IMG/VR virus record: IMGVR_UViG_2634166457_000001
Source of the DNA: a virus
Taxonomy: Duplodnaviria > Heunggongvirae > Uroviricota > Caudoviricetes
DNA: 6,612 bases
Reading direction: 5' to 3' (one strand)
Each line of letters opens with the position of its first letter. Within the stretch, counting starts at the first letter, position 1. The notes beneath the pieces were generated by a model, which saw nothing but the letters and a program-made list of their open reading frames with translations, did not search any database and was not told the DNA's origin. The position numbers were made by a program, and so were the translations under genes. Shown here piece after piece: positions 1 through 6,612 of this stretch.

Positions 1-294
1 CGCTGTTGGTGGCGCTACTGAGCTGGACTATCCTTTTCGTGCCGTCGTGGCGTCCTGAGCGGTATATTTCCCGTTAGCAAGGTCATATGTTGCCTTTACC
101 GCCTTTGGTGTTGCCGCCAGCGTTTCTGAATCGCTGTTGGTGGCGCTACTGAGCTGGACAAGTCCTTTCCGTCGCTGTAGTGGCGTCCTGTGCGGTATAT
201 TTCCCGTTAGCAAGGTCATAGGCTGCCTTGACCGCTTTCGGCGTTGCGGCCAGTGCTTCAGACGTGCTGTTGGTGGCGCTACTGAGTTGAACAA
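1..294 (-). pseudogene. Out-of-frame continuation of the tail-fibre gene: repeat 2 is encoded in a second frame (ORF 28..294, ending TAG 28..30) and repeat 3 begins at about 28 and runs off the window start
   Basis: ORF 28..294 contains RKGLVQLSSATNSDSETLAATPKAVKATYDLANGKYTAQDATTARKG, a near-perfect copy of the repeat but in a different frame from ORF 146..829. Hand translation of 1..28 gives IVQLSSATNS back in the first frame. Confidence 0.6.
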
Positions 295-307
295 AGCCTT
301 TTGCGGT
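1..307 (-). repeat. Tandem direct repeats (period about 131-133 nt, about 2.3 copies in window, boundaries approximate) encoding the 44-aa tail-fibre repeat
   Basis: The plus-strand motif cgctgttggtggcgctactgagctggac occurs at 1..28 and 132..159, with the variant tgctgttggtggcgctactgagttgaac at 265..292. The encoded peptide repeat is LSSATNS-SE-LAATPKAVKA-YDLANGKYTAQDATTA. Confidence 0.85.
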
Positions 308-829
308 CAGCGAGGCGTCCGGGTGACGTCGTGACTGTTCATGTTCTTTCAGTTTGTCATTCACGTAATCCACTGTGGCCATAACCATGGTGTTATCCAC
401 GGTAAGCGCCACGGTGGCAGTGCTGGATACGGTCAGAATGGTGCGAAATGTTTGTGCACGTCCGGATCCTTCGGCAACGGCTGGCTTGTAACTTTCCGCA
501 GTATTGCCCACCGCGATCAAATCGCCGTGCTCATCAAATACACCAATTTCCCGGATCCAGAATCCGCCCGTTTCAGGAGGAATAACCAGCTCCGCAATAA
601 TGCGGTTCTGATGTGTTGCGTCCAGGATGACGCGATTAACAGTATGTCGCCACACCTCATGCACCAGACGGGTCTGCTTACTGTCTGGTGTGGGCAACGT
701 GCCGCCACCGTCGCCCACGGCCATGTGAGTCAGGCGGACAGGATTACCATCTGGCGCGGCTGCCTGAGCTAATTTTTTGGCACCAGTATCAGTGATAATG
801 GTTTTAAATTTTCGTGTTGTGGTACTCAT
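146..829 (-). CDS. H: Tail fibre protein, gpH-like N-terminal part (227 codons); the frame ends at TAG 146..148 after a frameshift inside the repeat region, and the gene's remainder lies beyond position 1
   Basis: ATG at 829..827. Translation MSTTTRKFKTIITDTGAKKLAQAA...MAVGDGGG...IAELVIPPE...AESYKPA...EHEQSRRHPDASLTAKGFVQLSSATNSTSEALAATPKAVKAAYDLANGKYTAQDATTA matches the conserved N-terminal domain and first 44-aa repeat of P2 tail fibre H as I recall it. Sits directly downstream of gpI, as in P2. Confidence 0.85.
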   Translation of the reverse strand: MSTTTRKFKTIITDTGAKKLAQAAAPDGNPVRLTHMAVGDGGGTLPTPDSKQTRLVHEVWRHTVNRVILDATHQNRIIAELVIPPETGGFWIREIGVFDEHGDLIAVGNTAESYKPAVAEGSGRAQTFRTILTVSSTATVALTVDNTMVMATVDYVNDKLKEHEQSRRHPDASLTAKGFVQLSSATNSTSEALAATPKAVKAAYDLANGKYTAQDATTATERTCPAQ

Positions 830-4820: not shown

Positions 4821-5209
4821 GCCGGATAGGCTCCGTGTGGTAACTGAAAATGCGGTCCGTCTTTCAGGGTCTTCCAGTCGCCGCCCCATTCCACCGGAAT
4901 ATTCAGTTCCCGGCTGGCCTGTCTGAATGCTGCTGCGATTTTTTCGTACAGCGGCCATTCCCATGACACCTGGCTGCCGATATAAGCCACAACATCCACG
5001 GCATGTCCCGTAAGGTGGCGGCTGTTCATGGTCTGGCTCTTACCTGTGGCCACAAGTTGCTTCTGGCGGTAACGGCTGCGCAACCCTTCGGTGATACCAA
5101 AATCCACTTCCGAAATTTCCAGTGCCCGTCGGGTCACTTTCACCAGATCAGGATTTACGCCCTGCAAATTCTTTTCGCTCCGGTTGCTGAATTTAAATGT
5201 GTTGCTCAT
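4817..5209 (-). CDS. Endolysin, M15-family zinc metallopeptidase type (130 aa)
   Basis: Lies between holin and spanins. SRHLTGHAVDV and GGDW...DGPHFQ resemble the H-x6-D ... H zinc-binding signature of LAS/M15 peptidases. ATG 5209..5207 has AAGGAG upstream and overlaps the holin stop (ATGA). Confidence 0.7.
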   Translation of the reverse strand: MSNTFKFSNRSEKNLQGVNPDLVKVTRRALEISEVDFGITEGLRSRYRQKQLVATGKSQTMNSRHLTGHAVDVVAYIGSQVSWEWPLYEKIAAAFRQASRELNIPVEWGGDWKTLKDGPHFQLPHGAYPA

Positions 5210-5529
5210 TCGTCCTTCTCCTTCACCCTGCGATTAAAGGCCGCAATAACCTTGTCGCGTGCTTTCTCTGCGCCCATAAAACCGATTGATGCGCCGATAA
5301 ACGTCACGGCATCTTCAGGAAACCCGAAGAAGCGCAACGACCCGGCCACGGCCATGGCAAGAACGCCGCACGCCAGCGATCCCGTTACGGTCTGAACCAG
5401 TGTTCGTCCGTCATAAAGACTCATCAGCGCGGAAATGCTGACCGCCGCGCCTACTGCATACACCGTTGGCAGGTGGTCAAAGAGCCACGCAATAACCTGC
5501 TCTGTGATCCCTGTTTGAATGGTGCTCAC
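5206..5529 (-). CDS. Holin (class I-like, about 107 aa from GTG 5529; an internal ATG start is also possible)
   Basis: Three hydrophobic segments (LPTVYAVGAAVSISALMSL, LVQTVTGSLACGVLAMAVAGSL, AVTFIGASIGFMGA) and a charged C-terminal tail KARDKVIAAFNRRVKEKDE. GTG 5529 has GGGGGGA 6 nt upstream. Sits immediately upstream of the endolysin. The track's ORF 5206..5748 over-extends across X. Confidence 0.65.
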   Translation of the reverse strand: MSTIQTGITEQVIAWLFDHLPTVYAVGAAVSISALMSLYDGRTLVQTVTGSLACGVLAMAVAGSLRFFGFPEDAVTFIGASIGFMGAEKARDKVIAAFNRRVKEKDE

Positions 5530-5531
5530 TG

Positions 5532-5732
5532 CTATTCCCCCCACAACTGAATCATTTCTCGTTTCTTCTTCTCCGGCTCCGGCATCTCCACTTCCTGCCC
5601 GGCGTCCAGAAATACCTGCTGACAGAGCCCGGGGTTGGCATCCAGCACCTTTTCGGTGACGCCCTGCGTCGTGCCGTAGTACCGGAAACAGAGCGAATCC
5701 ACGGTGTCGCCTTCCAGTGCCTTCACCTTCAT
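5532..5732 (-). CDS. X: Tail protein gpX-like (small LysM-like protein, 66 aa)
   Basis: From ATG 5732: MKVKALEGDTVDSLCFRYYGTTQGVTEKVLDANPGL...QLWGE resembles P2 gpX (MKTFALQGDTLDAICVRYYGRTEGVVETVLAANPGL...NLWE). The ATG overlaps the upstream stop (TGATG). Confidence 0.85.
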   Translation of the reverse strand: MKVKALEGDTVDSLCFRYYGTTQGVTEKVLDANPGLCQQVFLDAGQEVEMPEPEKKKREMIQLWGE

Positions 5733-6612
5733 CAGCACAACTCCGCAAAGATTCGCGGGCGGCGCAGAATGTCAGAGATGGCCCAGCTCACATCGCGCCA
5801 CAAATCCGATGTCTGTATATCCAGTGCGTCCGCCCGGCGGTCGCCCTTGTCCGTTGTGTCCGCATCGCGGTAACGCTCCAGAATCAGGGCGCGTGTGGCG
5901 GTATAAACAGCATTGCGCCAGTGCCAGAGATTGACGCTTTCTCCGTTAATTACGGGTGCCGGAACATCGGCCAGCGTCTGATGGCCAGCCGCCTGCTGTT
6001 CCTGCTGCCATGCTTCCAGCTCGCGGGTAACGTGTGCCACGGCCCCAGTGGCGGTATGCAGCAGGCGGGAGGTGGTCACACGGCCCGGCAGTCGTACCGC
6101 CAGACGCAGCTCACGCAGCACAATATCCGGCCAGAATGCACCCGCTGAAATACGGGTATCACCATCATCGGTATCGGTGATGTCGTCCTGCGCCTGCGGT
6201 GTGCTGGCGTCTTCTGGTTCGGCTGCGGAATCGGCTTTTTTCAGGGCGCGGGAAAGGGTTGCAATCTCGCGTTTCACACCTGCGTTCGGGTTCAGGTGCA
6301 TCGCTTCGCGCAGCAGCTTCAGTGATGAGGCCATGCTGTCCGCATCGGTCAGGCCACGACGGGCAAAGGCACACGCCTTGCATAATTTGGCGCGCACTTC
6401 GTCCGGCATGTCCTGGTCGGTGACAATCTCCCGGAGGGTATCCAGTGGTTCGATAAAGGCGGATAAATCCGCGTCGGCATCCGTCCCGGCCTGCGTCAGT
6501 ACCGGGTTGCAGATTTCTTCGGTCAGTACCGTGGCAGCAGTACGGCCAAAGTTATCCGGCATAATGAGGTTGTGACGGACCACATACGCACCAATACGCA
6601 GCGCCAGCGGAA
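5732..6612 (-). CDS. Partial ORF, 5' end beyond the window: terminase small/endonuclease subunit gpM-like C-terminal region continuing in-frame, with no stop, into head completion/stabilisation protein gpL-like sequence
   Basis: Frame is open from 6612 down to TGA 5734..5732. The upstream part contains DMPDEVRAKL and AGVKREIATL, which I associate with P2-type gpM. The downstream part (FWPDIV...LADVPAPVINGES...LILERYRDADTTDKGDRRADALD...LWRDVSWAISDIL) occupies the gpL position immediately upstream of X. No ATG start for a separate L gene was found. Confidence 0.65.
   Translation of the reverse strand, partial: PLALRIGAYVVRHNLIMPDNFGRTAATVLTEEICNPVLTQAGTDADADLSAFIEPLDTLREIVTDQDMPDEVRAKLCKACAFARRGLTDADSMASSLKLLREAMHLNPNAGVKREIATLSRALKKADSAAEPEDASTPQAQDDITDTDDGDTRISAGAFWPDIVLRELRLAVRLPGRVTTSRLLHTATGAVAHVTRELEAWQQEQQAAGHQTLADVPAPVINGESVNLWHWRNAVYTATRALILERYRDADTTDKGDRRADALDIQTSDLWRDVSWAISDILRRPRIFAELC

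Follow-up and report, generated by a model that had tools for sequence, protein, structure and literature searches.

In P2-like viruses, M and L are separate genes and both belong to the core hallmark genes of the group (PMC13100340). gpM and gpP constitute the terminase, and gpL is the head completion protein, which is added after packaging (PMC7552001). In P2 itself gpM is 247 amino acids long and gpL is 169 amino acids long, and the two genes are separated by a spacer of 99 nt. The DNA considered here is a stretch of 6,612 nucleotides (IMG/VR record IMGVR_UViG_2634166457_000001), referred to as a whole as the window, which carries late genes of a P2-type prophage of Escherichia coli M114. 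A preliminary description of the window noted that no stop codon divides a gpM-like from a gpL-like coding sequence. It gave the P2 genes as separate, encoding about 250 and 170 amino acids and divided by a short gap, which is correct. We propose that a single real deletion of 224 bp in the M114 prophage left this fused frame as its scar, and estimate from the sequence comparisons that the probability of this is about 0.7. The best reading is that the event is private to one prophage, and that it represents ordinary damage and not a new kind of gene.

A single reading frame covers parts of M and L

On the minus strand, one frame stays open from the first full codon of the window (6610..6608) to a TGA at 5734..5732, a total of 293 codons including the stop. 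This stop codon and the ATG of gene X (5732..5730) share one base, 5732, which ends the former and begins the latter, and the same 1-nt overlap is found between L and X in P88, P2, and other relatives. The preliminary description had reported a frame of at least 293 codons running from the window edge to a stop that overlaps X, and was accurate on both points. The features of the frame are listed here, in window coordinates.

5732..6612, minus strand: chimeric M'-'L open reading frame (ORF), incomplete at its 5' end (from the translation, the Pfam and PHROG matches, the identity to KNA40520.1, and the run of N upstream)
6190..6612, minus strand: gpM-derived part (from the nucleotide alignment, BLAST against an intact relative, and the gpM alignment)
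6183..6189, minus strand: deletion junction, with the single kept copy of AGGACGA (from alignment columns 424-647, coordinates checked)
5732..6182, minus strand: gpL-derived part (head completion protein/head-tail adaptor Ad1), from about residue 16 to the stop (from the nucleotide alignment, the PF05926 match, and the gpL alignment)

Profile searches find both of the domains suspected in the preliminary description. Phage_term_smal (PF05944) matches residues 3-71 of the chimera (E = 2.1e-11; 44.4 bits against a cutoff of 29.4) through profile positions 66-130, which is the C-terminal half of the domain, and Phage_GPL (PF05926) matches residues 154-291 (E = 3.2e-45) through positions 1-138 of 139, which is a full-length match. 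The PHROG profiles give a similar division, with terminase small subunit at residues 2-145 (phrog_74, E = 3.1e-40; phrog_5997, E = 3.4e-53) and head-tail adaptor Ad1 at residues 142-291 (phrog_71, E = 7.5e-60). Alignment to the intact proteins shows that the chimera in the window consists of residues 99-240 of gpM, followed by residues from about 15 to 164 of gpL and the stop. Residues 1-98 of gpM fall in a scaffold gap of 1,035 N; provided that this unseen 5' part of M is intact, the complete chimera would be about 390 amino acids long. The translation is identical to the GenBank protein KNA40520.1, labelled ‘phage head completion protein, partial [Escherichia coli M114]’.

The two parts had been described as joined by an acidic low-complexity stretch containing the peptide ADSAAEPEDASTPQAQDDITDTDDGDTRISAGA. 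This peptide is present, at 6235..6137 and not at 6247..6137 as originally given. It is not an inserted linker: the alignments show instead a native acidic stretch of gpM directly abutting the native acidic N-terminal region of gpL.

A probable deletion of 224 bp between short direct repeats

The window is without 224 bp that are present in every relative examined, including phage P88 and a prophage that is approximately 99.8% identical across the segment. All 46 of the 46 matches listed, which were drawn from a phage collection (16 records matched) and from complete E. coli genomes (1,089 matched), align to the 1,081-bp query in two pieces and span 1,299-1,306 bp, mostly 1,305 bp. Homologous prophages had been suggested as the place to look for a gap between M and L, and the relatives do have one, consisting of the M stop codon, a spacer of 101 nt, and a separate start for L. 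The deletion and its endpoints can be read directly from these alignments. It removes the last 26 codons of M (ESSKSKKTTRKPATRKTTATQKAKRG) together with the M stop codon; the entire 101-nt spacer; and the Shine-Dalgarno sequence of L (CAGGAG), its ATG, and its first 13-14 codons (MSMVARTNPGPAE). Among the features lost, the basic tail of gpM, the N-terminus of gpL, and the hairpin of the spacer are all conserved.

The 7-bp direct repeat AGGACGA is present twice in intact relatives, first close to the end of M and again in codons 13-15 of L, with the two copies 224 bp apart. It is the closest-spaced 7-mer repeat joining M and L coding sequence, and the chance of finding a microhomology of at least 7 bp at random breakpoints is approximately 4e-4. 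The product is in frame because both copies of AGGACGA have the same codon phase (..CAG GAC GAA.. in M and ..GAG GAC GAC.. in L). We considered whether the in-frame outcome could be a mark of selection, and rejected this: 44 of the 60 M-L 7-mer repeat pairs are predicted to give an in-frame fusion, and this outcome is therefore expected and gives no sign of selection.

The sequence on either side of the junction is very well preserved. Compared to an intact relative, the flank on the gpM side is 100% identical over 430 bp to an annotated gpM, and the next approximately 650 bp contain one substitution. A comparison over the whole window gives the same picture for the best relatives, with two aligned pieces and a length difference of 224 bp, so that the 6.6 kb contain no other net indel. 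An error-prone assembly with many indels across the M-L region was rejected on these grounds, the flanks being 100% and approximately 99.8% identical with the 224-bp gap as sole net indel. At the level of sequence, the locus has all the features of a short-direct-repeat deletion: collinear and near-identical flanks, one clean gap, a repeat at both ends, and one copy of the repeat kept.

Occurrence of the junction

The junction was found in no other genome. A 47-bp query spanning it has no match among the 5,426 complete genomes of E. coli, a set in which more than 1,000 carry this type of prophage; the query has less than 28 bp on each side of the junction, and intact genomes therefore cannot seed a megablast match to it. 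The exact 29-mer at the junction is absent from the GTDB species representatives, from IMG/VR, and from the JGI metagenome contigs. In a positive control, the M-side 29-mer of the intact form is present at 54 loci in IMG/VR, and the L-side repeat lies at the intact distance in 51 of these and at the deleted distance in 0.

The same is seen for proteins. Among the best 120 matches in a collection of 5.8 billion protein clusters, the only entry with both PF05944 and PF05926 is a singleton of 292 amino acids that is 100% identical to the chimera, namely KNA40520.1. An exhaustive HMMER pass over 1.84 billion representatives also returned KNA40520.1 as the only protein spanning both halves. A conserved natural M-L fusion gene, which would recur in independent genomes, is not supported by these sequences.

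The preliminary description left a choice between a genuine fusion, a lost stop codon, and an indel artefact, and allowed that the arrangement might be the normal single gene in its lineage. The last is not what is found, the junction being present in no other genome or protein cluster. The deletion comes closest in spirit to the indel, and a genuine conserved fusion is left without support. Loss of the stop codon by point mutation is rejected, since 224 bp are missing.

Consequences for gpM, the spacer, and gpL

A basic C-terminal tail, rich in K, R, and T, is found in gpM of 10 out of 10 aligned relatives and in P2 gpM, and is missing from the chimera. The small terminases of lambda and P22 bind the large terminase through their C-terminal region, and removal of the tail in P22 abolishes both DNA binding and association with TerL (PMC9611059). 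By analogy with these phages, a gpM that lacks its tail and has 150 foreign residues in that position is unlikely to work.

The spacer of intact relatives (in L001, positions 2196-2296) contains a long GC-rich hairpin followed by a run of U, with a predicted energy of -53.7 kcal/mol (z = -4.4), placed just upstream of the L Shine-Dalgarno sequence. An equivalent hairpin and U-run occurs in the same place in the P2 spacer (L060, positions 5901-5999), at -50.1 kcal/mol (z = -3.6). Lying within the O operon, the hairpin resembles a terminator, an attenuator, or an element that stabilises mRNA, and carries no annotation in the P2 record. Rfam assigned the intact spacer to no family, giving only a chance match (mir-2071, 22 bits vs a gathering score of 100). 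A scan for consensus terminators did not flag the hairpin, whose loop is above the limit of the scanner, and gave three unrelated sites, roughly as many as chance would produce.

As the preliminary description had stated, ATG is absent from the gpL-derived part. That description listed one in-frame alternative start, a GTG at 6120..6118 without a Shine-Dalgarno sequence. The site is in fact at 6121..6119 and does lack a Shine-Dalgarno sequence; there are three more in-frame GTG codons (6079, 6040, and 5791) and two TTG codons (5803 and 5740), and all six are inside the conserved domain. None of these in-frame GTG and TTG codons has a Shine-Dalgarno sequence: their duplexes with the anti-Shine-Dalgarno sequence are predicted at +0.1 to -3.3 kcal/mol, vs -6.9 for native L and a mean of -2.35 over the whole ORF. 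An internal GTG or TTG start giving a separate gpL is rejected, because each candidate is without a Shine-Dalgarno sequence and truncates the conserved domain. No free gpL would be made, because the ribosome-binding site and start codon of L are gone, and gpL would be obtainable only as the tail end of the approximately 390-residue chimera.

The AlphaFold model of an intact gpL relative is confident (pLDDT 80.8) except at residues 1-20 (pLDDT 41-52), which are predicted to be disordered. On the basis of this model, the folded core of gpL is kept in the chimera. Sequence and profile searches of the PDB with gpL and gpM gave nothing, or a chance match at E = 0.43.

Other lesions in the prophage and the source contig

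The gene for the large terminase (terL, P) carries two amber codons, W161>TAG and Q450>TAG, which account for 2 of the 10 substitutions found in 3.9 kb relative to an intact relative. With terL already interrupted twice, the prophage could most likely not package DNA, whatever happened in M and L. The tail-fibre gene H (ORF 146..829, minus strand) has a +1 insertion at window position ~172 (an extra A, cagcgAcgg) and a -1 deletion at ~31/32 (ggaatag to ggatag). The two indels are approximately 140 nt apart; about 45 codons are frameshifted, with a stop at 148..146, and the frame is regained past the second indel. They may be consensus errors, because they lie inside 132-bp tandem repeats beside the contig end. 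The eleven genes from X to I match their intact counterparts in length. With inactivating lesions in several essential morphogenesis genes (the terL ambers, the M-L deletion, and the H frameshift, the last possibly an artefact), the sequence indicates that the prophage is most likely defective.

The window is exactly one contig of scaffold KQ241477.1, in the draft assembly GCA_001186315.2 of E. coli M114. It is bordered in the scaffold by runs of 1,035 N and 1,369 N (L057, positions 8966-10000 and 16613-17981), and the window edge at 6612 is the end of the contig beside the 1,035-N gap, inside gene M. About 1,711 bp are expected from the reference in this first gap (the rest of O, all of N, and the first 292 nt of M) vs the 1,035 N present. 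The second gap is given as 1,369 N, yet the contig ends there overlap by approximately 115 bp in reference coordinates, within the tail-fibre tandem repeats. A literature search on strain M114 turned up no paper.

The prophage is P88-like (Xuanwuvirus, P2-type). All of the genes in the window are on the minus strand, and they form a P2-type late-gene block consisting of M, L, X, holin, M15 endolysin, LysB/LysC, R, S, V, W, J, I, and the start of the tail-fibre gene H. The gene following the chimera is the following.

5532..5732, minus strand: gene X (tail protein X), intact (from the PF05489 match, the annotation of relatives, and the sequence)

An ORF of 180 amino acids with a TTG start, at 5206..5748 on the minus strand, was rejected as a separate gene. 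It extends the holin gene, which encodes 107 amino acids in relatives, in the upstream direction and passes through X in a different frame.

Origin of the fused frame

The deletion would have arisen by replication slippage, or by microhomology-mediated illegitimate recombination, between the two copies of AGGACGA with one copy kept, and with a strong GC-rich hairpin lying within the deleted spacer. A scar of this form is classically left by such events. The same-phase repeats would then give an in-frame gpM(1-240)-gpL(~15-164) of approximately 390 residues. This chimera is expected to be non-functional or poorly functional as either protein, and would join a packaging factor that acts transiently to a protein that has to assemble as a ring beneath the portal. 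The prophage would already have been defective through the terL ambers, and the deletion would represent neutral decay.

A different origin is that M, the spacer, and L are all intact in M114 and that the fused frame is an artefact of assembly or consensus, in which the 7-bp overlap served to bridge a contig break at the hairpin or to join reads incorrectly. We consider this to be unlikely, although it deserves to be taken seriously, and several points weigh against a real and inactivating deletion. The deletion rests on one short draft contig of 6.6 kb, lying between N-gaps whose sizes disagree with the reference. The same contig has the +1/-1 indel pair in the tail-fibre repeats near its other end, and the quality of the assembly is not high. 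The deleted segment holds a very stable hairpin (-53.7 kcal/mol), and such GC-rich hairpins are a kind of sequence prone to coverage drop-outs. The fused protein is without an independent second source. As for inactivation, the proposed loss of function of the chimera is argued from other phages; the predicted core fold of gpL is fully kept and the residues lost are predicted to be disordered, and some adaptor activity may be possible. The 5' third of M is in the scaffold gap, and expression of the full chimera is therefore putative. Against an artefact, assemblers collapse repeats only at k-mer or overlap lengths far above 7 bp, and the flanks are clean, with 430 bp at 100% identity and one substitution in approximately 650 bp. 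A systematic artefact would recur, yet no other of the thousands of gpM and gpL sequences from drafts and Logan assemblies has the junction, and the two terL amber substitutions are not errors of the type made in assembly.

If the deletion is real, it might in principle be more than decay. A functional fusion, in which one polypeptide carries out the small-terminase and the head-tail-adaptor functions, or yields the two proteins through cleavage in the acidic region, would be in keeping with the intact frame, the complete gpL Pfam domain, the position of the junction in regions predicted or expected to be flexible, and the retained translational overlap with X. It is nevertheless exceedingly improbable: the fusion is a singleton in all collections, in contrast to the separate core hallmark genes M and L of P2-like viruses (PMC13100340); the conserved basic tail of gpM is gone; and the in-frame outcome is that expected for same-phase repeats. 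Furthermore, terL has two stop codons, and therefore no packaging function is left to select for. If such a fusion were functional, a virion neck protein would be coupled, oddly, to a packaging factor that acts only transiently, and there is no support for this here.

Selection could alternatively have acted to inactivate the prophage, knocking out head and packaging functions and keeping tail and lysis functions, on the way towards an element that is harmless or resembles a tailocin. Downstream expression of X and of the lysis and tail genes would then survive, owing to the in-frame scar and the lost spacer hairpin. Three lesions do fall in packaging and head-completion genes (two ambers in P and the M-L deletion), the eleven genes X to I equal those of intact relatives in length, and two nonsense changes among ten substitutions is high for chance. 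However, these counts are very small, H, a tail-fibre gene, also carries a frameshift in this assembly, the state occurs as a singleton and shows no sign of being conserved, and neutral decay accounts for the same data. We therefore regard such domestication as very improbable; if true, it would be an early step to a tailocin-like or host-serving element. Even taken together, selected disarmament of the head/packaging module or, less likely still, a working TerS-adaptor polyprotein would account for the locus with only a very small probability. A single deletion, itself part of neutral decay, remains the explanation that we favour.

Comparison with known systems

The closest described systems are the P88-type relatives. 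They are 97-100% identical in nucleotide sequence on both sides of the junction, have the same gene order (O N M L X holin endolysin), and show the same 1-nt overlap of L and X. They differ in having two genes, with M of 801 nt and L of 495 nt, and a 101-nt spacer with its hairpin, U-run, and Shine-Dalgarno sequence. P2 (NC_001895; M at 5157-5900 and L at 6000-6509) has the PF05944 and PF05926 domains, the same order within the O operon, the basic gpM tail, and the L/X overlap; its 99-nt spacer, like that of the intact relatives, folds into a strong hairpin followed by U's. The sequence similarity to P2 is only distant, and in P2 M and L are separate.

Sporadic chimeras of gpL form a second group for comparison. 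As in the window, gpL is in one frame with another structural or packaging protein, and each case is a singleton cluster. Those found in public protein libraries include gpN-gpL (P0163), gpO-gpL (P0227), gpL-sheath (P0165), gpP'-gpL, and gpL-gpD, and the set comprises P0163, P0196, P0205, P0227, P0165, P0167, and P0173. P0163 and P0196 were rejected as distant natural M-L fusions, their N-terminal parts being fragments of gpN and gpP respectively. P0205 (HIA2867907.1) is an independent gpM'-'gpL of 210 amino acids, which differs from the window chimera in its breakpoints and in that both of its domains are heavily truncated, whereas the window chimera keeps nearly all of both. Judged by their sequences, the members of this set probably result from deletion, or from misassembly, in other P2-like prophages, and the set shows that such chimeric sequences arise sporadically in P2-like elements.

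The significance of the locus beyond annotation is small. The GenBank label ‘phage head completion protein, partial’ gives no hint that the product is a chimera, formed by deletion from two essential genes of a prophage that is probably dead, and the scattered singleton chimeras of gpL with gpN, gpO, gpP, gpM, sheath, and gpD could pass for novel domain architectures.

Spontaneous deletions between short direct repeats in E. coli have been described for lacI and are attributed to slipped mispairing. The present case differs from these in that its mechanism is deduced from the scar alone. It resembles them in having a 7-bp repeat at its ends, one copy of which is kept, a length of a few hundred bp, and a palindrome inside the deleted segment. 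The genes involved are ordinary P88-type gpM and gpL, and the event is in the known class of short-repeat deletion and prophage decay, with nothing to suggest a new system. The locus illustrates cleanly how, during prophage decay, in-frame chimeras can arise from short repeats that share a codon phase in neighbouring genes.
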